A stretch of DNA of 64,000 bases from a virus: IMG/VR virus record IMGVR_UViG_3300042402_003388, positions 1 through 64,000 of that record. One strand, written 5' to 3'. Made by a program: the position numbers and the translations under genes. Position 1 is the stretch's first letter. The number at the start of each line of letters is the position of its first letter. The notes beneath the pieces were generated by a model. The model did no database searches. It worked only from the letters and a program-made list of their open reading frames with translations, and was not told where the DNA came from. Below are positions 40,603 through 52,379 of this stretch, piece after piece.

Positions 40603-40688
40603 TACTCGGGGCGGGAATCGAACCCGCACGGACCTTACGGTCCATCAGATTTTAAGTCTGACGTGTCTACCTATTCCACCACCCGAGC
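40603..40688 (-). tRNA. tRNA-Leu(TAA)
   Basis: GCTCGGG/CCCGAGT, loop CT-TAA-AA, long variable arm. Confidence 0.92.
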
Positions 40689-41228: not shown

Positions 41229-41263
41229 AACTGTGCAAATTTAATACATTTTTTTTATAAAAC

Positions 41264-41293
41264 AAAAAAAGGTCACAATTTCTTGTGACCTTT
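41264..41293 (-). terminator. attenuator-type terminator 3
   Basis: AAAGGUCACAA-GAAA-UUGUGACCUUU + U tract; 5' arm complementary to leader GUGACCUU (41347-41354). Confidence 0.75.
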
Positions 41294-41321
41294 CTTTTAT
41301 ACGTTTTTAGTTTAACTAATC

Positions 41322-41426
41322 TTATTTTTGTTTATCTAAACCGCGTAAGGTCACTATACCATTGCCACATAACGATGTGATAATGTTATCCTGTATCAAA
41401 AGACCTGTGTTGTTATACGTTTTCAT
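41322..41426 (-). CDS. putative leader peptide 3 (34 aa)
   Basis: MKTYNNTGLLIQDNIITSLCGNGIVTLRGLDKQK; contains antiterminator segment. Confidence 0.6.
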   Translation of the reverse strand: MKTYNNTGLLIQDNIITSLCGNGIVTLRGLDKQK

Positions 41427-41458
41427 AAATTACGGTTTTCTTTCTTATAAATATGTTC

Positions 41459-42336: not shown

Positions 42337-42822
42337 ATGAATAGTGAAGTAAATTACGAATCTTTTGGGGGGTGGGCCATCTCAAGAAAACTGTTTGAAT
42401 GGATTTTAAACCATTTACCGAAAGGAAGTACAATACTTGAACTAGGTAGTGGTAATGGTACTAAAGAGTTAGTTAAATTCTACAATGTGTATAGTGTGGA
42501 ACATAACATTGAATGGGTTAATTTGGTTCCCGAATCTACGTATATTTACGCCCCTTTAATTAATGGATGGTATGATGTTGAAATTTTAAAACAAGAATTA
42601 CCGACTCACTATGATTTACTACTTATCGACGGTCCAATAGGTAAAAATAGGGTTAATATTATTAATCATTACAAAATGTTTAAAACTGATATACCTATAA
42701 TTATTGATGATACTAATCGTGAAGATGATAATAACCTTTCAATATTTTTAAGAAAAACCCTAAATAAAAAAGCATCACTATCTGTGACCTGTGAAGATAA
42801 AATATTTACAATTATTTACTAA
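42337..42822 (+). CDS. class I SAM-dependent methyltransferase
   Basis: ILELGSG.GT; LLLIDGP; IIIDD. Confidence 0.8.
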   Translation: MNSEVNYESFGGWAISRKLFEWILNHLPKGSTILELGSGNGTKELVKFYNVYSVEHNIEWVNLVPESTYIYAPLINGWYDVEILKQELPTHYDLLLIDGPIGKNRVNIINHYKMFKTDIPIIIDDTNREDDNNLSIFLRKTLNKKASLSVTCEDKIFTIIY

Positions 42823-43526
42823 TGGAGGAAAATGAAAAATACGACTTTTGTATTGTTATTACGACATATGAAAGAGAGGATATGTTAAAACAGTTACTGA
42901 AAGATATTTTTGAATACACTGAATATAAAATGTATGTGGTCGTTTTTGATGATGGAAGTAAACACCCTTATGACTTAAGTGAGTATGACGTAAAATATGT
43001 TAAATATGTAAAAAATAATGGGTTAAAGAATCTTTGGAGAGTGATAAGCGACACTTTTAAATTTTGTAAAAATATAGACGCTAAGTATTATTTCTATTTT
43101 CAGGATGATTTGCGTCTGAAAAAAAACTTTTTCCAAGAAAGTATTAGAATTTTTGAAAATATCCCTGACGAGAATAAAATTAGTTTAGGGACATTAATGA
43201 TTGACACCCAAAGAAACATACCTAAATGGACGGGAGTTTATCCAATTGAGTATGACGAATATTATAAAACACAATGGTGTGAGTTAGTTTTTATGTGTGA
43301 ATACAAGTTTTTCGAATCTTTAGAATTTAAACTTAACCCAATACCTATGTCAAGATGGGATAAAAATCCTAATAATAGTAGCGGTGTTGGTCAACAAATT
43401 AGTGTTAGATTATTTGAAAAAGGTTTAAATATGTATCACGTAATTAATACATTAACCACTCACGGTGACCACGAGTCTGTAATATTACCCGAACTTAGAA
43501 AAAATGAAAAATTAATTGCAATATAA
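42822..43526 (+). CDS. glycosyltransferase family 2
   Basis: VITTYER; FDDGS; FQDD. Confidence 0.85.
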   Translation: MEENEKYDFCIVITTYEREDMLKQLLKDIFEYTEYKMYVVVFDDGSKHPYDLSEYDVKYVKYVKNNGLKNLWRVISDTFKFCKNIDAKYYFYFQDDLRLKKNFFQESIRIFENIPDENKISLGTLMIDTQRNIPKWTGVYPIEYDEYYKTQWCELVFMCEYKFFESLEFKLNPIPMSRWDKNPNNSSGVGQQISVRLFEKGLNMYHVINTLTTHGDHESVILPELRKNEKLIAI

Positions 43527-43540
43527 AATTTAAAAATAAT

Positions 43541-45307
43541 ATGGATAAAATAATATATAATGTTGCAAGCTATAAAAGAGGAGATACTTTAATAAAAACT
43601 ATACAATCAATTTATAATCAATGTGATATTATCAACGTTGCACTTAATGATTATGATGAAATACCTGTTGAATTGTACGATAAAAAAATAAATTTATTTA
43701 TTACGGATAATGACAGAGGGGATGCGTATAAATTTTATAAATTAATGAATTCTGAGGGTTATTATTTCACAATTGATGATGATTTAATATACCCCGAAAA
43801 TTATACCGAATATATGGTTGATAAAGTTAATCAATATGGTAAAAAATCGATAATTACACAACACTCAAGAAGTTTTAATTCATTTCCTATTAATAATTTT
43901 TATGGTCGTAATACCTTAGTTAATCATTTTAAACAACTACAAACTAACGATATTAAAGTTCAATTTGGAGGTACTGGTGTTATGTGTTTTCACACTGATT
44001 TATTTAAAGTACCTATTGAATATTTTGATAGACCAAATATGGCTGATGTGTGGATTGGTAAATACGCAAAAGAAAATGATATTGATATTATATGCGTCAA
44101 ACATAATAGCGGGTTTGTAGTACAACAAAATTTTGAGGACTCAATATATACCTCCGATTCCAAAAATGATACAATTCAGACAATTTTGACTAACGACTGT
44201 TATATGGATAAGGAAGTGTCGATAATCATACCTACATTTGATAATGTTGAATATATTCAAGAATGTTTAGATTCCGTAGTATCCTCGTGTTCTATGATTA
44301 ATAACTTTGAAATATTGGTAGGTATCGACTATTGTCCAAAAACTTTAAAATTTATAATGGAAAATAGTTTTGACTATCGAATAAGATTTTATTTTTTTAA
44401 TGACAATGTCGGTCCGTATATCATTAAAAATTCATTATCAAGAATTTCTAAATCGGATAATATAATTTTTTTTGATTCTGATGATGTTATGGATAAAGAT
44501 ATGGTTAGTGAGGTTTTGTTAGGACTTAAAACTTCAGAATGTGTTAAACCAATGTTTCATAATTTTACTAATTATATTGATTATGACGACCCAAAATATA
44601 ACTTAGAAACTAAGTTATTTGGTGAAGGGGTATTCGGAATTAAAAAAAATATTTTTTTAAATTTTAACGGGTTTGAAGGGTGGAGATGTGCCGCGGATTC
44701 TGACTTTATGGTTAGAATTCAAAAAAATGGAGTAACATTTAATTGGGCTAAAAAATTATTGTTTTACCGAAGAATACACGATAAAGGTTTAACAACGATT
44801 CCTGAAACTAATTATGGGTCTAAATTACGTAAACATTATATTGAGTTAACAAATTCAAAAACAAATTTTGGGCCACTGGATGAAATGAAGATTTCGGATT
44901 TTACAAGAATTTATACTAAAACAGAAATAACTAAAATTAGTTATCGTAATATTATACCGACCAAACCTGTAATTGAGACTCCACAACATAGTACTGAGGA
45001 TACTTTAAAACAAGTTTATTCTAAAAGTACGGTTATCGATAATAAAGTTAAACCAATTAATACTGAGGATAAAATTCTATCTAAATCAATTGAAAAGTCG
45101 GATAATAGTACAGTAGAAGATATTCGTAAAAATGTTTTATCATTATTGTCTGATAAAAAAGTTGTTAAAAAAATTGATAAGGATTTGATTGACCAAAAAA
45201 GACAAAATAGTAGAGATGTTGTAATACCGTATACAATTCAACCTGTTAAAAAGACCAGTAGAACGAGTGGGATTAACACAAAAAGAGGGGGAGGATTTAA
45301 TTTTTAA
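43541..45307 (+). CDS. two-domain GT-A glycosyltransferase
   Basis: TIDDDLIYP; VSIIIPTF; FFDSDD; DSDF. Confidence 0.85.
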   Translation: MDKIIYNVASYKRGDTLIKTIQSIYNQCDIINVALNDYDEIPVELYDKKINLFITDNDRGDAYKFYKLMNSEGYYFTIDDDLIYPENYTEYMVDKVNQYGKKSIITQHSRSFNSFPINNFYGRNTLVNHFKQLQTNDIKVQFGGTGVMCFHTDLFKVPIEYFDRPNMADVWIGKYAKENDIDIICVKHNSGFVVQQNFEDSIYTSDSKNDTIQTILTNDCYMDKEVSIIIPTFDNVEYIQECLDSVVSSCSMINNFEILVGIDYCPKTLKFIMENSFDYRIRFYFFNDNVGPYIIKNSLSRISKSDNIIFFDSDDVMDKDMVSEVLLGLKTSECVKPMFHNFTNYIDYDDPKYNLETKLFGEGVFGIKKNIFLNFNGFEGWRCAADSDFMVRIQKNGVTFNWAKKLLFYRRIHDKGLTTIPETNYGSKLRKHYIELTNSKTNFGPLDEMKISDFTRIYTKTEITKISYRNIIPTKPVIETPQHSTEDTLKQVYSKSTVIDNKVKPINTEDKILSKSIEKSDNSTVEDIRKNVLSLLSDKKVVKKIDKDLIDQKRQNSRDVVIPYTIQPVKKTSRTSGINTKRGGGFNF

Positions 45308-45369
45308 AAATAAAATTTGACTTTTTACGTTACATACGTATATTTAATTAAAAACAAGTAAAACTGCAA

Positions 45370-45444
45370 ATGAAAACAACACATATCATACTAATAGGCG
45401 GGACAGATAGAACTGAAGCGACTACTCCAATGGAGATGGTGTGA
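45370..45444 (+). CDS. leader peptide 1 (24 aa) of tRNA array 1
   Basis: MKTTHIILIGGTDRTEATTPMEMV; codons match array-1 tRNAs; TGGAGATGG pairs with terminator arm. Confidence 0.8.
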   Translation: MKTTHIILIGGTDRTEATTPMEMV

Positions 45445-45468
45445 TATTCCTATACTATGAATTCACTG

Positions 45469-45497
45469 AACCCATCTCCAAAAGAGATGGGTTTTTT
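45469..45497 (+). terminator. attenuator terminator 1
   Basis: AACCCATCTC-CAAAA-GAGATGGGTT + T tract. Confidence 0.85.
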
Positions 45498-45520
45498 GTT
45501 TTTAGATTGTTAAACATTTT

Positions 45521-45530
45521 GTTCTTTGAA
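45521..45530 (+). promoter_or_regulatory. boxA-like element
   Basis: GTTCTTTGAA ahead of first tRNA; overlaps a second TTTG..TATCTTTG promoter. Confidence 0.6.
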
Positions 45531-45564
45531 ATATTGGTTGTATCTTTGTAAAAGATTTAAAAAT

Positions 45565-45636
45565 GGTCCCTTCGTCTATCGGTTAGGACATATCCCTTTC
45601 ACGGATAAAAGACGGGTTCGATTCCCGTAGGGACTA
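45565..45636 (+). tRNA. tRNA-Glu(TTC)
   Basis: cloverleaf, loop CT-TTC-AC. Confidence 0.9.
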
Positions 45637-45657
45637 CAAAACTTAAAAAATATTATT

Positions 45658-45921
45658 ATGCCAGAATTTAACACTTATGTTGATGTAGACGTTTACGAAT
45701 TTATTGATGAATGTTCAAAAAGTGAAATTAATGAGTTAATTGACGATTTAATTGATAGGGGTTACTTAAACAAAAATAGTAAAGGGGTTGGTAAACCACC
45801 GAAATATTCATTAATTGAGGAAACTCATAGAGATTATTGTGATGTTTTGGCGAATTCTTACCATAGAATGAGTAAGGAAGACGAAGAAACAATCGCGAAT
45901 ATTGCTAAAAAATATTCGTAA
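45658..45921 (+). CDS. hypothetical protein
   Basis: 87-aa ORF inside tRNA array. Confidence 0.7.
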   Translation: MPEFNTYVDVDVYEFIDECSKSEINELIDDLIDRGYLNKNSKGVGKPPKYSLIEETHRDYCDVLANSYHRMSKEDEETIANIAKKYS

Positions 45922-45928
45922 TAAAAAT

Positions 45929-46002
45929 GGGGGTGTATGTCTCAAGGCCGACGAGAATGATTTGCAATCAATCTGGGGTGAGTTCGATTCTCACCATCTC
46001 CA
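45929..46002 (+). tRNA. tRNA-Ala(TGC), atypical
   Basis: G3:U70 pair, loop TT-TGC-AA, mismatch in anticodon stem, unusual D arm. Confidence 0.7.
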
Positions 46003-46006
46003 CAAT

Positions 46007-46097
46007 GTTATCATAGCTCAGTAGGATGAGGCCGCAATCGGATTCCTTTAAACAACGCGTGAGGGGCGGCTTTCACGATGTGGCTGAAGTGATAACA
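46007..46097 (+). ncRNA. tRNA-like element with expanded anticodon arm
   Basis: acceptor GTTATCA/TGATAAC, TAGCTCAG D arm, GCCGC/GCGGC stem enclosing ~30 nt, non-canonical T loop. Confidence 0.55.
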
Positions 46098-46107
46098 AAT
46101 AATATAT

Positions 46108-46179
46108 CGCGGGATAGAGCAGTGGTAGCTCGCAAGGCTCATAACCTTGAGGTCGGGGGTTCGAATCCCTCTCCCGCAA
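46108..46179 (+). tRNA. initiator tRNA-fMet(CAT)
   Basis: C1:A72 mismatch, CGCGGG start, loop CT-CAT-AA. Confidence 0.9.
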
Positions 46180-46188
46180 CTAATATAT

Positions 46189-46262
46189 CGTGGGTTAGAC
46201 TGGAGGTGGTTCCAGCTTGGTCTCATAAGCCAAAGACGGGGGTTCGAGTCCCTCACCCGCAA
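46189..46262 (+). tRNA. tRNA-Met(CAT), initiator-like
   Basis: C1:A72 mismatch, loop CT-CAT-AA, unusual D arm. Confidence 0.75.
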
Positions 46263-46340
46263 CAAAGTGTCTCGGTCCGCTCTGACGAAAGTTAACGACG
46301 AGGTCTCGGTAGACAGAACGCGTCTGATTCTACCCAAAAT

Positions 46341-46413
46341 GCGAGAGTAGCTCAGTTGGTAGAGCACAACCTTGCCAAGGTTGGGGTCGCGGGTTCGAAT
46401 CCCGTCTCTCGCT
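46341..46413 (+). tRNA. tRNA-Gly(GCC)
   Basis: canonical cloverleaf. Confidence 0.95.
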
Positions 46414-46422
46414 CAATAATAA

Positions 46423-46495
46423 GCGGATATCGTATAATGGCTTATTACTTCAGCCTTCCAAGCTGAAGATGTGAGTTCGATTCTCACTATCCGCT
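46423..46495 (+). tRNA. tRNA-Gly(TCC)
   Basis: canonical cloverleaf. Confidence 0.92.
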
Positions 46496-46500
46496 CAAAA

Positions 46501-46573
46501 GGTCCCGTGGTTGAATGGTTACAATTCCACCCTGTCACGGTGCGAGGTACGGGTTCGAATCCCGTCGGGACCG
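46501..46573 (+). tRNA. tRNA-Asp(GTC)
   Basis: loop CT-GTC-AC, G73. Confidence 0.9.
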
Positions 46574-46581
46574 CAAACTTT

Positions 46582-46653
46582 GGTCTATTCGTTCATCGGC
46601 TAGGATGCTACCCTGTCACGGTAGTGAGGAGGGTTCGATTCCCTCATAGACCG
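46582..46653 (+). tRNA. tRNA-Asp(GTC), second divergent copy
   Basis: loop CT-GTC-AC, G73. Confidence 0.9.
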
Positions 46654-46683
46654 CAAAAATAAATTAATTTATACTTATTGAGT

Positions 46684-46842
46684 ATGGATAAAGAAAAATG
46701 GGATTCTGATGAATGGCAAGGGCGTTCTAAAGACAGGGTCGAAAAAAACAATAAAGTTTTTGGATACTCTATATTACTTACAATACTTGGTACAGTAATT
46801 TGTTATTTATACGTCATAATATCCACTTATTTTAGATTTTGA
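46684..46842 (+). CDS. 52-aa membrane protein (below ORF-track cutoff)
   Basis: MDKEKWDSDEWQGRS... plus C-terminal TM helix. Confidence 0.6.
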   Translation: MDKEKWDSDEWQGRSKDRVEKNNKVFGYSILLTILGTVICYLYVIISTYFRF

Positions 46843-46892
46843 TTTGTTATTTCGTAAAAAATTTACTAAATTTGTAGTGTAAATAAAATATT

Positions 46893-47069
46893 ATGTGGGT
46901 AATTGTAAAATTAATGGAAAGTCTTAATGGTGTTAAAGTTCCTGTCATTATCTTAGATGGACACTCAGAAATTTGGGAATTTGAAACTGAAGAAGAGGCG
47001 GTTAAAATGAGAGACATTTTTTCTAAAAACTCGGACTCAGGTCACGTTTACTTAGTTAAAAAAGTCTAA
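46893..47069 (+). CDS. 58-aa hypothetical protein (below ORF-track cutoff)
   Basis: MWVIVKLMESLNGVKVPVIILDGHSEIWEFETEEEA... Confidence 0.65.
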   Translation: MWVIVKLMESLNGVKVPVIILDGHSEIWEFETEEEAVKMRDIFSKNSDSGHVYLVKKV

Positions 47070-47074
47070 CAAAT

Positions 47075-47148
47075 GGTTCCGTAGCTCAGCTGGATAGAGC
47101 AACTGCCTTCTAAGCAGTAGGTCACAGGTTCGAATCCTGTCGGGACTA
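47075..47148 (+). tRNA. tRNA-Arg(TCT)
   Basis: canonical cloverleaf. Confidence 0.95.
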
Positions 47149-47163
47149 CTAAATTAAAAAATT

Positions 47164-47418
47164 ATGGTTGATATTAATCAAGATATTGTATTTGAGGAAG
47201 AACATAATGAGTTTATTAAAAGTGAGTTATTCTGTCAAATGATGAAAGAAAAAATAGAACATTCTGCGTATCATAAATTTGATGGTATTGCACCTGAAGG
47301 ATTTACGTTGGTACCAAATGAGGTGTTAGAAGAACTTAAGGACTTTGACAATTGGAAGGAGTTTAAATACGATTTAGAATGGATTAAGAAAAATTCTATA
47401 AAGTATTTGGTAGTTTAA
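47164..47418 (+). CDS. hypothetical protein
   Basis: 84-aa ORF. Confidence 0.65.
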   Translation: MVDINQDIVFEEEHNEFIKSELFCQMMKEKIEHSAYHKFDGIAPEGFTLVPNEVLEELKDFDNWKEFKYDLEWIKKNSIKYLVV

Positions 47419-47435
47419 CTTATAAAAAATAATAT

Positions 47436-47714
47436 ATGAAAAAATTTGCACCATACGTATTAGTACTTATTTGGTTTTTAGTTATTGGGTTATTGGCGTT
47501 CTTATTGACAGGATGTAAAAATAAGAATAAAATAGAACCTGGTGATAAAGTAGTTAAATGTGTAATTGATAGTGTTTCAACTGAAGGACCTCGTTCAACT
47601 ATTGAACCGTATGTAAGATATTATTACTATACCAAATGTGGTGAAAGACTTATTACCAATCGAGATGACATTTACAAAATTGGGGACACGATAACTTACG
47701 TATATAAAAAATAA
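47436..47714 (+). CDS. lipoprotein/membrane protein
   Basis: hydrophobic N-terminus ending LTGC. Confidence 0.65.
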   Translation: MKKFAPYVLVLIWFLVIGLLAFLLTGCKNKNKIEPGDKVVKCVIDSVSTEGPRSTIEPYVRYYYYTKCGERLITNRDDIYKIGDTITYVYKK

Positions 47715-47719
47715 AATAA

Positions 47720-47792
47720 GCCTCCTTAGCTCAGCTGGTAGAGCACTTCACTTGTAATGAAGGGGTCGTAGGTTCGAATCCTACAGGAGGCT
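47720..47792 (+). tRNA. tRNA-Thr(TGT)
   Basis: canonical cloverleaf. Confidence 0.95.
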
Positions 47793-47798
47793 CAAATT

Positions 47799-47872
47799 GG
47801 TCCTTTAGCTCAGTTGGTTAGAGCAGCTCACTCATAATGAGAAGGTCACAGGTTCAAGTCCTGTATGGACCA
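47799..47872 (+). tRNA. tRNA-Ile2(CAT, lysidine type; reads ATA)
   Basis: CAT anticodon with ileX-like body (GGTCCTT, GGTTAGAGCA, TTCAAGT). Confidence 0.75.
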
Positions 47873-47893
47873 CAAATATCTAAAAACACAAAT

Positions 47894-48061
47894 ATGCAAC
47901 TTATATTCAATATTATCGCAACAATTGTATTCCTAATCTTTGGGATTATATGGAGTAAGAAAACGTTCACAGACATTATAGCCAAAATAATTTGTCTTGG
48001 TTTATCCATTTTAGGAATTATTCTAATTTTGATACAATGCGGGTATATTATTAAAAAATAG
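47894..48061 (+). CDS. small two-TM membrane protein
   Basis: ATG at 47894; upstream extension overlaps tRNA. Confidence 0.6.
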   Translation: MQLIFNIIATIVFLIFGIIWSKKTFTDIIAKIICLGLSILGIILILIQCGYIIKK

Positions 48062-48076
48062 TCATATATTTGTACT

Positions 48077-48352
48077 ATGAAAAGTTACCTGATTATTAGA
48101 GAGGATTATTTTAATGAAAAAGGAATTGGTAACAATACTCATTTCTGTATTAAAGAATCTAAAAAATTTTTATGGTTTGAATGGTGGTCGTACGTGAAAT
48201 ACAAAGAATGTTACGAAAGTGGTTCATATAACACTGTTTTAAAGTTCACTAATTTATATGAAGCAGAAAAATTTGTTAATGAAGTTTTGTTAAAAAACGG
48301 ACCAAGACAAAAATGGTCATCTATGACCCTAAAAGAAATAAAAGAAAAATGA
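48077..48352 (+). CDS. hypothetical protein
   Basis: 91-aa ORF after TATATTTG. Confidence 0.65.
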   Translation: MKSYLIIREDYFNEKGIGNNTHFCIKESKKFLWFEWWSYVKYKECYESGSYNTVLKFTNLYEAEKFVNEVLLKNGPRQKWSSMTLKEIKEK

Positions 48353-48936
48353 AAACGATATTTTTAGACCACGATGGAGTAATCTGTTTATCCACAGAGT
48401 GGGGTGGTCGTTACAAGAAACAAAAAAAATGGGGAGAACTTAAAATGTCTATGGGGATGAATGAAATCCCTATTGAATTTAGATTTGACAATTTTAATAA
48501 GAAGGCAATCAAAATTCTGAATTCAATTATTGAAGAAACTGGTGCTGAGATAGTAGTTTCATCTGATTGGAAACGATGGGCAACTGTTGAGGAAATGGGA
48601 CAATACTACGAATCTCAAGGGATTATCAAAAAACCAATCTCATTTACTCCAAACTTAAGTGAATGTAATAACTATGATGGTTCATTTCCTTGGAATAGAG
48701 ATTGGGATTTAGAACAAACTCGTACATTAGAAATTAACCAATATTTGAAGGACCATCCTGAGGTGACAGAATGGGTTGCAATCGATGACCTTAATATGGG
48801 AAAAGAGGGGATGTCATATTCAATTAAATGGGTTCACGATTGGGGTTTAGATAATTTTGTACTAACACCAAAAGGTAATGAAGGGTTAAAACAATCAGGA
48901 ATTAAAGAAAAAGTTTTATCTTTTTTAATAAAATAA
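48349..48936 (+). CDS. HAD phosphatase (Swiss-army-knife RNA-repair type)
   Basis: IFLDHDGVI; IVVSSDWK; WVAIDD. Confidence 0.85.
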   Translation: MKTIFLDHDGVICLSTEWGGRYKKQKKWGELKMSMGMNEIPIEFRFDNFNKKAIKILNSIIEETGAEIVVSSDWKRWATVEEMGQYYESQGIIKKPISFTPNLSECNNYDGSFPWNRDWDLEQTRTLEINQYLKDHPEVTEWVAIDDLNMGKEGMSYSIKWVHDWGLDNFVLTPKGNEGLKQSGIKEKVLSFLIK

Positions 48937-48943
48937 AAAAATA

Positions 48944-48974
48944 TTTGACAATTACGGAATTTTTCGTAACTTTG
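48944..48974 (+). promoter_or_regulatory. Bacteroidota-type promoter of leader 2
   Basis: TTTG-N19-TAACTTTG. Confidence 0.7.
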
Positions 48975-49019
48975 TAGTAATTATAGAAACAGGTAGAAAT
49001 ACCACAACAAATAGAAAAA

Positions 49020-49130
49020 ATGAAAAACACTAATAAACATATGAACGTCGTGATTTGGAAACAACAATTTAGTAATTGTTCGTATCCGCGTATTTCGCAT
49101 ACAAGTTCAGTTGATGAAGGTTTAGTGTAA
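49020..49130 (+). CDS. leader peptide 2 (36 aa) of tRNA array 2
   Basis: MKNTNKHMNVVIWKQQFSNCSYPRISHTSSVDEGLV; codons 5-27 match array-2 tRNAs; AGTTCAG pairs with terminator arm. Confidence 0.85.
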   Translation: MKNTNKHMNVVIWKQQFSNCSYPRISHTSSVDEGLV

Positions 49131-49164
49131 TGTAAATAAAATAACATACAACAAATATCTCAAG

Positions 49165-49196
49165 TCCTGAACTCAAAAAGTTCAGGATTTTTTTTT
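49165..49196 (+). terminator. attenuator terminator 2
   Basis: TCCTGAACT-CAAAA-AGTTCAGGA + 9 T. Confidence 0.85.
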
Positions 49197-49206
49197 GTTA
49201 TAAAGT

Positions 49207-49216
49207 GTTCTTTGAC
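49207..49216 (+). promoter_or_regulatory. boxA-like element
   Basis: GTTCTTTGAC right after the terminator. Confidence 0.65.
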
Positions 49217-49236
49217 ATATTGGTAAGAAAAGTAAA

Positions 49237-49308
49237 CGGGGTGTAGTCTCGAGGAGAGACGCGTGTTTTGGGAACACGAGGCGGCAGGTTCGACTCCTGT
49301 CACCCCGA
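49237..49308 (+). tRNA. tRNA-Pro(TGG)
   Basis: CGGGGTG/CACCCCG, loop TT-TGG-GA. Confidence 0.9.
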
Positions 49309-49314
49309 CTATAT

Positions 49315-49388
49315 TGTCACATAGCTCAGTTGGTTAGAGCGTTCGCCTGATACGCGAAAGGTCGATGGTTCGAGTCCATCTGTGACAA
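49315..49388 (+). tRNA. tRNA-Ile(GAT)
   Basis: canonical cloverleaf. Confidence 0.92.
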
Positions 49389-49394
49389 CTTAAT

Positions 49395-49469
49395 GTCTTC
49401 GTAGCTCAGTTGGTTTAGAGCACCTCACTTTTAATGAGGGAGTCACAGGTTCGAGTCCTGTCGGGGACA
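49395..49469 (+). tRNA. tRNA-Lys(TTT)
   Basis: canonical cloverleaf. Confidence 0.92.
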
Positions 49470-49475
49470 CAATAT

Positions 49476-49547
49476 GGTCGGTTGGCCGAGTGGCTTAGGC
49501 GATAGTCTGCAAAACTATCTACACAGGTTCGATTCCTGTACCGACCT
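49476..49547 (+). tRNA. tRNA-Cys(GCA)
   Basis: loop CT-GCA-AA, U73. Confidence 0.92.
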
Positions 49548-49552
49548 CAAAT

Positions 49553-49625
49553 ACGTCTGTAGCTCAGTTGGTAGAGCACTGGTCTCCAAAACCAGGTGTC
49601 GGTGGTTCGAATCCATCCAGGCGTG
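49553..49625 (+). tRNA. tRNA-Trp(CCA)
   Basis: loop CT-CCA-AA. Confidence 0.92.
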
Positions 49626-49629
49626 CAAT

Positions 49630-49703
49630 GACTCAGTAGCTCAGGGGTTTAGAGCAGTTGACTGTTAATCAACGGGTCGTAGGTTCGATTCCTACCTGGG
49701 TCG
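49630..49703 (+). tRNA. tRNA-Asn(GTT)
   Basis: loop CT-GTT-AA. Confidence 0.92.
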
Positions 49704-49706
49704 CAA

Positions 49707-49841
49707 TAGGTTGATTAGGGAATGATTGTACTGATAGTTCGAGAGTGAATACTGACTAGTACAATCGGAGTTTGCAGGTATTCACCCGAGTAATGCTAAT
49801 CGTAAAAACAGATGTCCACTGAACCATCTTCTGTTTTCCTA
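49707..49841 (+). ncRNA. unknown ~135-nt RNA with loop-loop pseudoknot
   Basis: GATTAG/CTAATC, GATTGTACT/AGTACAATC, GTGAATACT/GGTATTCAC, AAAACAGA/TCTGTTTT. Confidence 0.6.
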
Positions 49842-49845
49842 AATT

Positions 49846-49926
49846 GGGAGTGTTGAGCAACGGTTGCTTAGCTGACTGTAAATCAGTGGTCTTACGACAT
49901 TGGGGGTTCGAATCCCTCCACTCCCA
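49846..49926 (+). tRNA. tRNA-Tyr(GTA)
   Basis: loop CT-GTA-AA, variable arm. Confidence 0.9.
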
Positions 49927-49934
49927 CAAAATAA

Positions 49935-49961
49935 AAAAGGGGATATAAATCCCCTCTTTTT
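49935..49961. terminator. bidirectional intrinsic terminator
   Basis: AGGGGAT-ATAA-ATCCCCT flanked by A and T tracts. Confidence 0.65.
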
Positions 49962-49979
49962 CGATTAGGTCGTTATCAA

Positions 49980-50144
49980 TTATTTCTGTTTAGCAATAAT
50001 TGACCATACACCACCAACTAATGTAACTGCAGCTCCGATAAGTTCTTGAACTGTTGAATCAGTTGCAAGACCTTTCATAATCAGGATACCACCCACAAAA
50101 GTAAGTGCGTGTCTAACGATACCTTGGATTTGTTCTTTAGTCAT
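49980..50144 (-). CDS. small two-TM putative holin
   Basis: MTKEQIQGIVRHALTFVGG...GVWS; TATTTATA upstream on - strand. Confidence 0.7.
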   Translation of the reverse strand: MTKEQIQGIVRHALTFVGGILIMKGLATDSTVQELIGAAVTLVGGVWSIIAKQK

Positions 50145-50200
50145 TATAAATTTGATTAAAGGTTTATGCCAGACTATAAATATTGGAAAAACGGTCAAAC

Positions 50201-50271
50201 TGTCCTTTCGTCTAATGGCAGGACACGTGGTTTTGGTCCACGCGGTGGAGGTTCGAATCCTCCAGGGACAA
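50201..50271 (+). tRNA. tRNA-Gln(TTG)
   Basis: loop TT-TTG-GT, U1-A72. Confidence 0.9.
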
Positions 50272-50325
50272 CAAGGGGTTAGGTGGAAACCCAAGAGTAG
50301 GTGATGAGTCTACGTCCACCAAAAT

Positions 50326-50397
50326 ACCGATGTAGCTCAGTGGTAGAGCACTTCTTTCATACGGAAGGTGTCGGAAGTTCAATTCTTCCCATCGGTA
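50326..50397 (+). tRNA. tRNA-Met(CAT), elongator
   Basis: paired 1-72, loop TT-CAT-AC. Confidence 0.8.
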
Positions 50398-50403
50398 CTT
50401 AAC

Positions 50404-50478
50404 AGTTCCTTAGCTCAGTTGGTTTAGAGCACTTCTTTTACACGGAAGGGGTCGTAGGTTCGAATCCTACAGGGACTA
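50404..50478 (+). tRNA. tRNA-Val(TAC)
   Basis: loop TT-TAC-AC. Confidence 0.92.
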
Positions 50479-50485
50479 CAAAATG

Positions 50486-50522
50486 CCAAACTCGGTAGTA
50501 AAACACGTCCAAACTCGGTAGT
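50486..50522 (+). repeat. 14-nt direct repeat CCAAACTCGGTAGT x2
   Basis: copies at 50486 and 50509, just upstream of a TTTG..TACCTTTG promoter. Confidence 0.8.
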
Positions 50523-50633
50523 TTTAAAAAAAGTTTGGTGAATTGAAAAATGTTTCATACCTTTGTATTCACAAACAACGGGGGGTAGGAGTTAGTAAGT
50601 CGGTGGCCTACCCCCCCTGAGACAAGATAGAAA

Positions 50634-50643
50634 GTTCTTTGAA
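50634..50643 (+). promoter_or_regulatory. boxA-like element
   Basis: GTTCTTTGAA after strong GC hairpin 50580-50617. Confidence 0.55.
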
Positions 50644-50652
50644 TTAAAATAC

Positions 50653-50787
50653 TGATAATGGTTTTCCCCACTCAACGGATGTCGACAATCCAGAATGGAA
50701 TCGGAATTCAGCACCCCCTGCCGAGGCCTCGTAAAACTACGATTAAGCAGTTAAGATTGGAGCGAGATGGGTACTCCAACATTATCA
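50653..50787 (+). ncRNA. unknown multibranch RNA
   Basis: closing stem TGATAATG/CATTATCA with four internal hairpins. Confidence 0.5.
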
Positions 50788-50792
50788 TACTT

Positions 50793-50865
50793 GGAACGGT
50801 AGCTCAGTTGGTAGAGCACTTGCCTGAAGAGCAAGGTGTCGGCGGTTCGATTCCGCCCCGTTCCA
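50793..50865 (+). tRNA. tRNA-Phe(GAA)
   Basis: canonical cloverleaf. Confidence 0.92.
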
Positions 50866-50939
50866 CGGAGTCCTGAAATAACAGGAAACCCCCACTCCCA
50901 TATGGCAGCCAGTCCATTAACCTGGTGAAGTGGGGTAAT

Positions 50940-51073
50940 AGTCGAGTGGGCGTAATGAGGGATGGTACCCGAGTCCCCAAGACCAATAGTCCCAGACACT
51001 TGTGGGTTCTATGGAGTCGTAAGGTTGTCTAATCCGTCTTGAACGGTATTCGGTTCGAGTCCGACCTTGACTA
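50940..51073 (+). ncRNA. tRNA-like element (134 nt) with enlarged central domain
   Basis: acceptor AGTCGAG/CTTGACT-A, T arm TCGG-TTCGAGT-CCGA. Confidence 0.6.
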
Positions 51074-51079
51074 CAAAAT

Positions 51080-51181
51080 AGTCAGGAGTCCATTGGTTGG
51101 AGTCACCTCCCCAAGGTTGAGTAACAGTAAGGCTGACTCTTTATGGCAAAGACGGAACAGGTTCGAATCCTGTCCTGACTA
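51080..51181 (+). ncRNA. tRNA-like element (102 nt) with enlarged anticodon loop
   Basis: acceptor AGTCAGG/CCTGACT-A, T arm ACAGG-TTCGAAT-CCTGT, GTCA/TGAC stem with ~28-nt insert. Confidence 0.65.
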
Positions 51182-51185
51182 CACG

Positions 51186-51394
51186 AGTCGAGTAGTATAC
51201 GACTAGTTTGCTCCCGAATGATGAGAAGTGGTGTTACAACCATAGGGACCTGAGCCGATTACTTGAGTCTAAGTCGGTTGGTTAGTGTACCAGTAACAGG
51301 AGTAAGTTAACACACAAGTTCTAACCCCTCACGAAATTGGTGAGTTGCCGCTGAAATTCGGTATTGGGGACAGTCAAAAATGATTGAACGACTA
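51186..51394 (+). ncRNA. unknown ~210-nt structured RNA
   Basis: TTGCTCC/GGAGTAA, AGCCGATT/AAGTCGGTT, CCCC/GGGG multibranch domains. Confidence 0.5.
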
Positions 51395-51397
51395 TAT

Positions 51398-51471
51398 GGT
51401 GGTTATAGCTCAGTTGGTAGAGCACTTGATTGTGGTTCAAGGTGTCACGGGTTCGATTCCCGTTAATCACC
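51398..51471 (+). tRNA. tRNA-His(GTG)
   Basis: G-1:C73, loop TT-GTG-GT. Confidence 0.92.
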
Positions 51472-51477
51472 CAAAAA

Positions 51478-51565
51478 GGAGGAATGGCAGAGTGGTCGAT
51501 TGCACTAGTCTTGAAAACTAGCGTACCGAAAGGTACCGTAGGTTCGAATCCTACTTCCTCCGCCA
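51478..51565 (+). tRNA. tRNA-Ser(TGA)
   Basis: long variable arm, G73, encoded CCA. Confidence 0.95.
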
Positions 51566-51567
51566 AA

Positions 51568-51975
51568 GACCCCACGATTAACGGAAGTATCCGACCGTTA
51601 CGGAGTGTGAACCTGACTTGAAGGCTTCAAGGCTATGGGGGAGGCAACACAAACAAACAAGGATTCCCCATTATGGATTAAGGGGGTAAGGGGCTTTAAT
51701 TAGTCGTAATACAATCCACAAGTTGTAAGAATACTGAACAATCTTACAATACACACTCAGCTTCCGAGTGAGACTCGCCACGTAACTTTGGGGGTAGGGT
51801 GAAGATGTTCTGAGGGTAACCCTGAAATATGGGTGAGAGTAGAAACCCACCGTGGACGGTTACTATGGGCTAACGAATCTTAGTCATATCGGTGAGGGAT
51901 ACTAATGACGCCAGACTATATTAAAAACTAAAAGGTTCTCCTCAAAGGCGGAGGGACGATTCAGGACCTTTTTTA
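51568..51975 (+). ncRNA. 400-nt GC-enriched structured non-coding block (probably several RNAs)
   Basis: successive closed domains, no ORF, ends in hairpin + T tract. Confidence 0.5.
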
Positions 51976-52002
51976 ATCCTACACTTAAAAAATCTAAAAT
52001 AT

Positions 52003-52206
52003 ATGACAGACAAATTACAAGAGTTGTTAGAAACATCTCAAATCGGTGAGCCCGAAATTGTTGACTTATTAAACTCAATGTACAAATTGGTTGAAACTAA
52101 ATTATTTACACAGGATGAGTTCAATGTTGTGTTAGATAGGTTAGGAATCAAACAAGAAGGGAATTCCTTCATTTTTAATGAAGATATGGTTTATACCTTC
52201 AATTAA
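52003..52206 (+). CDS. hypothetical protein
   Basis: 67-aa ORF. Confidence 0.65.
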   Translation: MTDKLQELLETSQIGEPEIVDLLNSMYKLVETKLFTQDEFNVVLDRLGIKQEGNSFIFNEDMVYTFN

Positions 52207-52212
52207 AAGTAT

Positions 52213-52284
52213 AGTCCCTTGGTGTAACGGATAGCACGAAACACTACGGATGTTTTAGTGGGGGTTCGAATCCCTCAGGGACTA
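52213..52284 (+). tRNA. tRNA-Arg(ACG)
   Basis: loop CT-ACG-GA. Confidence 0.9.
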
Positions 52285-52289
52285 CTATT

Positions 52290-52375
52290 GGAAGATTACC
52301 CAAGTTGGTGAAGGGGCTTGTTTGCTAAACAAGTAGGACTGTAAGGTCGCGAGGGTTCGAGCCCCTCATCTTCCG
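52290..52375 (+). tRNA. tRNA-Ser(GCT)
   Basis: loop TT-GCT-AA, long variable arm, G73. Confidence 0.92.
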
Positions 52376-52379
52376 CACA

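Follow-up and report, generated by a model that had tools for sequence, protein, structure and literature searches.

A probable ribosome-mediated attenuator with a codon list ahead of a phage tRNA array

Introduction

How does a phage that carries its own tRNA genes decide when to transcribe them? The question is raised by positions 1 to 64,000 of IMG/VR virus record IMGVR_UViG_3300042402_003388, the whole 64,000-nucleotide stretch of DNA that we analysed and call the window. Here an array of eleven tRNA genes (array 1) is preceded by a compact module, 45316-45548, with a promoter, an open reading frame (ORF) of 24 codons, an intrinsic terminator and a boxA-like element. The module had earlier been interpreted from its letters alone (the sequence-only reading), with the proposal that the short ORF lists the tRNA species of the array and governs the terminator as in classical attenuation. 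We consider it probable, at roughly 0.72, that 45316-45548 is a ribosome-mediated transcription attenuator controlling read-through into array 1.

Phage tRNA clusters such as the T4 and T5 tRNA regions are known, as are tRNA-cleaving defences, among them PARIS, retrons and PrrC. Phage tRNA arrays substitute for scarce or cleaved host tRNAs (PMC12409363). The features on which our argument depends are as follows.

45316-45346, plus strand: promoter P1, with TTTG/TTGACT at 45316-45322 and TATATT(TA) at 45339-45346
45370-45444, plus strand: leader ORF 1, 24 codons and a TGA stop, A-rich upstream and with no Shine-Dalgarno sequence
45388-45420, plus strand: proposed sensing zone, codons 7-17, with at least one codon each for Ile2, Gly-GCC, Gly-TCC, Thr, Asp, Arg-TCT, Glu and Ala
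45431-45444, plus strand: antiterminator 5' strand, a 9-mer and GTGA, overlapping the last codons and the stop codon
45463-45480, plus strand: antiterminator 3' strand, TCAC at 45463-45466 and a 9-mer at 45472-45480 that makes up most of the terminator 5' arm
45468-45503, plus strand: intrinsic terminator 1, an 11-bp stem (45468-45494) with a CAAAA loop, and a T-tract
45518-45548, plus strand: possible bypass promoter P2, TTTG-N19-TATCTTTG, overlapping the boxA-like element and assigned from the sequence only
45521-45538, plus strand: boxA-like element, with a second copy at 49207-49224
45565-47873, plus strand: tRNA array 1, comprising Glu, Ala, two Met/initiator-like tRNAs (CAT), Gly-GCC, Gly-TCC, Asp x2, Arg-TCT, Thr and Ile2 (CAT)
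48944-49224, plus strand: sister module 2, with promoter 48944-48974, leader ORF 49020-49130, antiterminator segment 49103-49111, terminator 49162-49190 and boxA 49207-49224
49237-52376, plus strand: tRNA array 2, following module 2 and comprising Pro, Ile-GAT, Lys, Cys, Trp, Asn, Tyr, Gln, Met, Val, Phe, His, Ser-TGA, Arg-ACG and Ser-GCT

Results

The codon list and the array behind it

P1 scores 10/12 against the sigma-70 consensus and also fits the Bacteroidota pattern TTTG-N19-TAnnTTT(A/G); a short ATG-initiated ORF lies directly downstream, a layout that is kept in relatives. Codons 7-19 of that ORF are as the sequence-only reading listed them, CTA being the sole codon unread by array 1, and all 8 elongator species of the array fall within codons 7-17. 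Over the whole of leader 1, 17 of 23 codons match array 1 and 9 of 9 species are covered. Measured against the codon usage of this phage's ORFs longer than 200 amino acids (aa), the probability of such a match is 6e-5 with lenient wobble and 3e-4 with strict wobble, and that of finding all 8 elongator species in codons 2-17 is 6e-4. Leader 2 gives a corresponding result for array 2, with 29 of 35 codons matching and 15 of 15 species covered (P<=1e-5), all 14 non-Met species lying in codons 2-24 (P=2e-6); it employs 19 of the 20 amino acids.

The two lists also tell their arrays apart. With ATG excluded, leader 1 holds 15 array-1 codons and 5 array-2 codons, and leader 2 holds 5 and 28 respectively (Fisher test of leader by array, p=2e-5 with lenient and 2e-4 with strict wobble). 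The 100-kb record contains 336 ATG ORFs that are 20-45 codons long; of these, none but leader 1 attains the fraction of matches that leader 1 shows, and none but leader 2 covers array 2 fully. The codon match of leader 1 is not due to chance.

The ATA codons of the list are assigned to the CAT tRNA at 47799, which the sequence-only reading took to be Ile2. That assignment is backed by a full-length match, at 83% identity, to an E. coli plasmid tRNA that is annotated tRNA-Ile and has the same CAT anticodon loop; because of this match the Ile2 identity is supported without recourse to the leader, at the level of sequence comparison. The D arm is common to this tRNA and the phage Ile-GAT tRNA. 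A comparison with TAT-anticodon tRNAs of relatives was uninformative (28-64% identity) and was replaced by the one with E. coli.

Leaders rewritten with their arrays in relatives

A 158-kb relative (loci L002, L013 and L019) shares about 86% identity overall. In both modules the identity rises to 94-100% across promoter, leader, spacer and terminator, on a par with the tRNA genes, compared with 79-83% for the flanking coding sequences (CDS). For module 1 the values in L002 are 98% for P1, next to CDS at 79%, and 98.7% for leader ORF 1. Such a pattern suggests that the leader modules are under purifying selection.

Querying IMG/VR with the opening codons of leader 2 gave 25 loci, each with a short ORF 180-315 nucleotides (nt) upstream of the first tRNA of an array. 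They form two types of common composition whose order differs past the N-terminus, and the type with Thr and Leu tRNAs in its arrays carries Thr and Leu codons. A second search, for which the query was the leader-1 tail plus the terminator arm, gave 73 loci with about 30 distinct homologous leaders of 22-24 codons. Throughout these variants the codon set is constant (ATA, Gly, Ala, Glu, Asp and Thr, with or without AGA and Leu), the order is permuted, synonymous changes are tolerated and the peptide N-terminus is conserved. Sub-families that bear AGA have Arg-TCT, and a close sub-family with Gly codons in place of AGA is without it. Similarly, TTA and CTT occur in leaders whose own array holds Leu-TAA and Leu-TAG. 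In the window the Leu tRNAs are located outside array 1 and a single CTA is left in leader 1; the outsider codon is thus explained by the position of the Leu tRNAs, in the same array in relatives and elsewhere in the window.

Across 54 distinct leaders, an array tRNA is without a cognate codon in about 16 of 450 cells, and the association of codon with tRNA reaches p=2e-6 for Arg-TCT and 3e-9 for Glu, all of these figures ignoring phylogeny. The leader of L003/L039 fits its rearranged array partly, having no Asp or Glu codons and covering 10 of 12 species. No leader was found at loci L004-L006 (tRNA His..Asp) or at the lone Arg-TCT tRNA of L003.

An unbiased search used as its pattern the terminator T-tract fused to boxA alone. 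It returned 37 loci, nearly all with promoter, short ORF, terminator, box and tRNA array, and many of their leaders are unrelated to leaders 1 and 2. For instance, L124 has a leader rich in Asn, Tyr, Cys, Asp, Glu and Ile codons before Glu, Tyr, Asp, Asn, Cys, Met and Ile tRNAs, and L117 one rich in Leu, Asp, Val, Ala, Glu and Trp codons before Asp, Glu, Val, Leu, Ala and Trp tRNAs. Taking one representative, picked by rule, from each of 16 leader families (the two modules of the window standing for their own), we found that leaders cover 97% of the species of their own array compared with 73% under permuted pairing, and that 58.5% of leader codons are read by the own array compared with 39%; 0 of 100,000 permutations reach the observed coverage or precision (P<=1e-5). 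An ATG-initiated ORF of 22-49 codons is kept open in all families, and coverage is 0.96 in frame as against 0.68 and 0.61 in the other two frames. Since the codon signal exists only in the reading frame, it argues for translation of the leaders and against an effect of base composition or of RNA only.

Terminator, antiterminator and ribosome position

The sequence-only reading had placed a 9-bp antiterminator at the stop codon. Its two strands are as proposed, TGGAGATGG (45431-45439) being the exact reverse complement of CCATCTCCA (45472-45480), and GTGA (45441-45444) pairs with TCAC (45463-45466); the CAAAA loop is likewise common to terminator 1 (45468-45494) and terminator 2 (49162-49190). 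This antiterminator (9+4 bp) is the minimum-free-energy (MFE) structure of the nascent RNA, with a duplex of -11.6 kcal/mol (P=0.012 against shuffles), and the region as a whole folds well below shuffled controls (z=-4.2). A pairing of 45383-45393 with 45437-45447 appears in the full-length MFE and is absent from the nascent RNA. No Rfam family matched the leaders, and none, T-box included, was found at E<=1 over 45200-45564.

In 35 leader-1 relatives 98% of the cells of terminator 1 are paired, with 3 pairs changed on both sides. Locus L045 has the compensating change in all three strands, namely leader tail, 5' arm and 3' arm. A different triple change, which preserves both pairings, is found in L111, L113, L127 and L132, loci that came from the box search, in which those bases were unconstrained. 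The final 1-41 nt of the leader ORF contain, in most families, the segment that best complements the terminator 5' arm; these segments are unrelated in sequence between families. Tested against shuffles, 11 of 20 modules give a P of 0.05 or less, and in several of them 0 of 500 shuffles is as good. In nearly all families a gap of 24-34 nt separates the stop codon from the terminator stem downstream.

To relate this geometry to the ribosome, we folded the nascent RNA downstream of a ribosome with a footprint of -15/+12 nt about the A site and upstream of the terminator 3' arm; the result depends on that footprint. For leader 1 the folds predict that the terminator 5' arm is sequestered while the A site is at any of codons 2-17 and is released once it reaches codons 18-20; for leader 2 the arm is sequestered over codons 2-24, and the change falls in the interval from codon 24 to codon 27. 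The codon that completes each list of tRNA species coincides with the end of the range in which the antiterminator stays free: it is GCG at codon 17 in leader 1 and CGT at codon 24 in leader 2. The antiterminator also forms in nascent RNA without any ribosome, and an untranslated leader is predicted to read through because no stable trp-style 1:2 protector is predicted. When pairs across the ribosome were permitted in an equilibrium fold with a masked footprint, no contrast emerged, the terminator standing at 0.97 throughout; the nascent downstream-only folds were used in its place.

RNA-library contigs across the terminators

Logan contigs from four freshwater metatranscriptome runs of different studies cover both modules. 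One contig corresponds to 45374-45553 and holds leader 1, its terminator and the box; another, 49034-49242, holds leader 2, its terminator, the box and the start of tRNA-Pro, and further module-2 contigs span 49016-49209 and 48991-49142. The depth in these RNA libraries is zero over the flanking protein genes (44800-45372 and 48047-48619), which we have not counted as evidence. The contigs lend weak support to transcription across the terminators.

The boxA-like element and the route into the array

The boxA-like 18-mer has only two near-exact copies in the genome, one in each module. Exact matches number more than 120 in species-representative genomes, almost all of them Bacteroidota. In 2 of the 15 Bacteroidota loci examined, both in Flavobacteriales, the 18-mer is in the 16S-23S spacer, immediately ahead of 23S; at the other 13 there is no rRNA gene within 8 kb. 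A literature search for the boxA string found no mention of it. Assignment to the boxA of ribosomal RNA operons (rrn) is, from these positions, no more than plausible. Chitinophaga and other Bacteroidota also have multiple copies of the 18-mer per genome at sites more than 8 kb from any rRNA or tRNA gene (L146, L153, L178, L202, L193 and others).

A second host-type promoter, downstream of the terminator and able to give basal expression, had also been proposed by the sequence-only reading. Its element TATCTTTG is present at 45541-45548, with TTTG 19 nt upstream, and this putative P2 is conserved in L002. A basal bypass via P2 is accordingly possible in the window; the element overlaps boxA, and many relatives have a promoter-less arrangement. 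P2 is missing from module 2, where the interval from the T-tract to the box or first tRNA has no space for anything promoter-like, and from many relatives in which boxA abuts the T-tract. In many relatives boxA or the first tRNA stands 10-40 nt past the T-tract with no space for a promoter, and the tRNAs there would therefore be reachable only by read-through. This fusion of boxA to the T-tract argues for read-through as the ancestral route into the tRNAs.

Two further observations concern promoters around the modules. The P1 spacer holds an inverted repeat (45326-45330 / 45336-45340), and repeats of this kind, TACGT..ACGTA or TTACG..CGTAA, occur in the spacers of both leader promoters of the window (45326-45340 and 48952-48969), with ACTTTT..AAAAGT in many relatives; they could be an operator for a dimeric repressor, that is, a second, promoter-level control as in the Anabaena trn operon. 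In L022, L033 and L025 an acidic ORF of 35-50 aa with its own promoter is inserted between the leader-1 terminator and tRNA-Glu, and promoter and boxA are duplicated on both sides of it.

Discussion

A model of attenuation

We propose that host RNA polymerase starts at P1 and that a ribosome translates the 24-codon leader close behind it; on its way through codons 7-17 this ribosome would call on every elongator tRNA species of the array at least once. Where decoding is prompt, the ribosome would reach codons 18-24 and the stop and cover 45431-45444, so that the terminator (45468-45494) could fold and transcription would end. A stall in codons 7-17, for want of a charged tRNA, or a failure to translate the leader at all would leave 45431-45444 to pair with 45463-45480 and sequester the terminator 5' arm. 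The polymerase would then continue through boxA, where it would probably become resistant to termination as in rRNA operons, into the tRNA genes. The new tRNAs would relieve the stall, closing a negative feedback loop on tRNA supply. Likely triggers would be the loss of host tRNAs after shut-off, tRNA-cleaving defence nucleases, or codons poorly decoded by the host (ATA, AGA). Both the function of boxA and the trigger are matters that we infer.

The proposal of classical attenuation has come through a series of computations: the anatomy of the module, the codon statistics, the co-evolution of codons with arrays, frame specificity, the co-variation of the strands, the footprint geometry and the RNA-library contigs that bridge the terminators. 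It stands in a refined form, the folds giving read-through also without leader translation, such that the array would be OFF only when translation runs smoothly to the end.

Several observations weigh against an attenuator at 45316-45548. That the leader is translated, the start site, and a dependence of read-through on a stall are things we infer, and contigs cannot prove transcription, nor show strand, ends or abundance, DNA carry-over being possible. The terminator is favoured at equilibrium (P=0.97), and the switch must therefore be kinetic, as in classical systems; the nascent-RNA folds predicted no conserved pause or 1:2 hairpin. In the alignment of leader-1 relatives (A2) the core pairs of the antiterminator were fixed by the search pattern. 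There are 1-3 codons per tRNA species here, compared with 4-8 in most classical leaders, which makes the response of the leader to a partial tRNA shortage uncertain. L002 is without Gly-GCC and yet its leader retains GGC (L002 12791-12864, compared with 46341-46496 in the window), which shows that leader and array can be out of step for a time; some other leaders retain Ala or AGA codons without that tRNA in range. Finally, the consensus host-type promoter at 45518-45548 is located past the terminator, and one leader-1 subgroup mostly has a clear promoter, sometimes with an extra ORF, between terminator and tRNAs, together with a weaker antiterminator and a variable codon 22, which is inside the antiterminator. 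That subgroup looks like a partial decay of the control.

Alternative explanations

The module might instead be a general switch for translational health or timing, in which any failure of translation or coupling (host shut-off, a ribosome-targeting defence or amino-acid starvation) opens the terminator and the codon list is a by-product of broad sampling. The folds do predict read-through without a ribosome, leader 2 spans 19 of 20 amino acids, and single codons per species would mean weak specificity. Broad sampling, however, does not account for leaders that are array-specific, with swapped pairings matching far less well, nor for the two leaders of one phage dividing the code as their arrays do, nor for AGA, Leu and Thr codons that are gained and lost along with the tRNAs, and we regard this switch as unlikely. 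Slightly less likely in our view is a small gene that stands alone, encodes a 24-aa peptide or yields a short RNA, and has a promoter and a terminator to itself. Transcription of the tRNAs would then start from the promoter at 45518-45548, and the terminator would serve only as an insulator. The Bacteroidota-type consensus promoter after the terminator, clearer in many relatives than here, and the conserved N-terminus of the peptide are what one would expect of such a gene. It leaves unexplained the array- and frame-specific codon matching, the permuted order at constant composition, and the recurrence in the ORF tail, with different sequences in unrelated families, of a complement to the terminator arm; moreover many relatives and module 2 have no space for a promoter before boxA or the first tRNA.

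Two explanations keep the terminator as a switch and change what sets it. The choice between terminator and antiterminator could be made in an untranslated RNA, with a protein, or a tRNA bound directly as in a T-box, deciding in place of a ribosome; an ATG without a Shine-Dalgarno sequence and a fold well below shuffles (z=-4.2) would suit this. Translation in Bacteroidota, though, generally initiates without a Shine-Dalgarno sequence, and an RNA of this kind would have no need of an ATG ORF open in all families, of codon matching confined to the reading frame or of tolerance to synonymous changes. With no Rfam family matching the region either, T-box included, we consider it quite improbable. 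Least credible to us is a reversed polarity as in pyrBI, where a ribosome close behind the polymerase melts the terminator, so that a stall leads to termination and smooth translation to expression of the tRNAs. Coupling-dependent suppression of terminators near a stop codon is known (PMC4824070), but the stop codon 24-34 nt upstream of the stem in nearly all families puts the stem beyond the footprint, and the conserved, co-varying antiterminator strand would have no role. None of these rivals accounts both for codon matching that is specific to array and frame and for a co-varying antiterminator that recurs between families, and we prefer the ribosome-mediated attenuator.

Genome setting, host and tRNA gene content

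The IMG/VR record, of which the window makes up the initial 64 kb, measures 100.5 kb and is rated 33% complete; on this basis the phage is roughly 300 kb in size, and its G+C content is 33%. Lake and freshwater metagenomes of many studies contain near-identical DNA. A megablast of the region against the GenBank phage collection gave a tRNA-Met match only and no relatives. Together, the promoter patterns and the near confinement of the 18-mer to Bacteroidota genomes point to a putative host among the Bacteroidota, a freshwater one and probably of the Flavobacteriia or Chitinophagia.

ARAGORN finds 29 tRNA genes in the window: a lone Phe, two minus-strand Leu, and arrays 1 and 2, the former with three small ORFs interspersed. 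The second CAT tRNA of array 1 (46189-46263) has an initiator-like C1/A72 end and an unusually long D arm, and its Rfam tRNA score is 38 bits compared with 67 for its neighbour at 46108; it may be an initiator, an elongator or a decoy. In the arrays of relatives (L104, L025, L060, L107 and others) ARAGORN reports anticodon loops of unusual length (called '???', with 2- or 4-base anticodons), a SeC-TCA call, and extra Arg-TCG and Ser-CGA. These odd tRNA-like genes may be intron-containing, frameshift-suppressor-like or decoy tRNAs.

Module 1 is preceded by two family-2 glycosyltransferase genes (42822-43526 and 43541-45307), and module 2 by a HAD domain of the 'Swiss Army Knife' RNA-repair type (48313-48936); an RNA-repair gene adjoining a tRNA array resembles rtcB next to the Anabaena array. 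A third module, on the minus strand at 41264-41453, has a promoter, a 34-codon ORF from 41425 and a terminator at about 41262-41292, and lies upstream of an HNH-type gene. The two Leu tRNAs come after it, with a boxA-like GTTCTTTGAA directly ahead of the tRNA-Leu at 40688. Its Leu-codon match looks weaker than the match of leaders 1 and 2.

Comparison with known systems

Attenuators of amino-acid operons include trpL, hisL, leuL and pheL, and multivalent ones such as the ilvGMEDA leader (Ile/Leu/Val) and the thr leader (Thr/Ile). The phage modules resemble them in having a promoter, a short ORF with regulatory codons (in the amino-acid operons a translated one), and an intrinsic terminator whose 5' arm has an alternative pairing upstream, and, as we predict for the phage, in that the position of the ribosome picks the fold and a stall leads to read-through. 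They differ in what is controlled, biosynthetic enzymes in the one case and, by our proposal, tRNA genes in the other, and in how the codons are arranged, with 8 (leader 1) to 15 (leader 2) tRNA species at 1-3 codons each in place of runs of one to three amino acids. The phage leaders also distinguish isoacceptors at the level of the codon (AGA from CGN, ATA from ATY, GGC from GGG). Further differences are the absence of a predicted stable 1:2 protector hairpin, such that an untranslated leader should read through, the boxA after the terminator, and the fact that the element is phage-borne.

T-box riboswitches also sense the supply or charging of tRNA and control an intrinsic terminator via an antiterminator. 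A T-box, however, makes direct contact with a single uncharged tRNA by way of its specifier codon and T-box bulge, is untranslated and controls synthetase and amino-acid genes, whereas the phage element has a conserved ORF in which many species are sampled, precedes tRNA genes that it would control and matches no T-box model. The comparison with rrn boxA (NusB/NusE) rests on the 18-mer of 45521-45538 before 23S in two Flavobacteriales and on the long untranslated RNA genes that lie downstream in both settings. The phage element differs in standing behind a terminator that would be regulated and ahead of arrays of tRNA only, and most genomic matches to the 18-mer are not near rRNA genes.

The trn operon of Anabaena sp. 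PCC 7120 is a long tRNA array induced under translational stress (PMC8421152), and is controlled at its promoter, where direct repeats are bound by the ribbon-helix-helix (RHH) repressor TrcR (PMC10272220). The likeness to the phage arrays would lie in an accessory tRNA array that is silent until translation is impaired; the Anabaena array is cellular and controlled by a promoter repressor, whereas for the phage arrays we propose attenuation. The paper describing the Anabaena operon (PMC8421152) makes no mention of attenuation, a leader or a terminator. In our literature search no leader-peptide control of tRNA genes in the style of the trp operon was found, the Anabaena trn array being the nearest case, and no sensing or feedback element was described for phage tRNA clusters.

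Significance

If the attenuator reading is true, leader-peptide attenuation as the textbooks describe it would be extended to tRNA genes, with a direct feedback from the speed of decoding to the supply of tRNA. The expression of phage tRNA arrays is largely unknown, and the reading offers a testable answer as to when such arrays are used; it would also tie them to the current question of how phages evade defences that target tRNAs. Leader text and array content have co-evolved over at least 16 leader families, which leaves the hypothesis unusually well constrained ahead of experiment. The leaders would be a natural record of the codons that a phage "worries about", and may be of use to synthetic biology as compact multi-codon sensors.

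More tentatively, and at slightly less than even odds, we speculate that large freshwater and marine Bacteroidota phages have in these modules a modular, evolvable circuit for tRNA supply. Each array would have its own leader, with a codon list that is rewritten as tRNA genes come and go. Missing host tRNAs, including those cleaved by anticodon nucleases, would be detected in this way, and the matching set alone would be switched on via an rrn-type antitermination complex.

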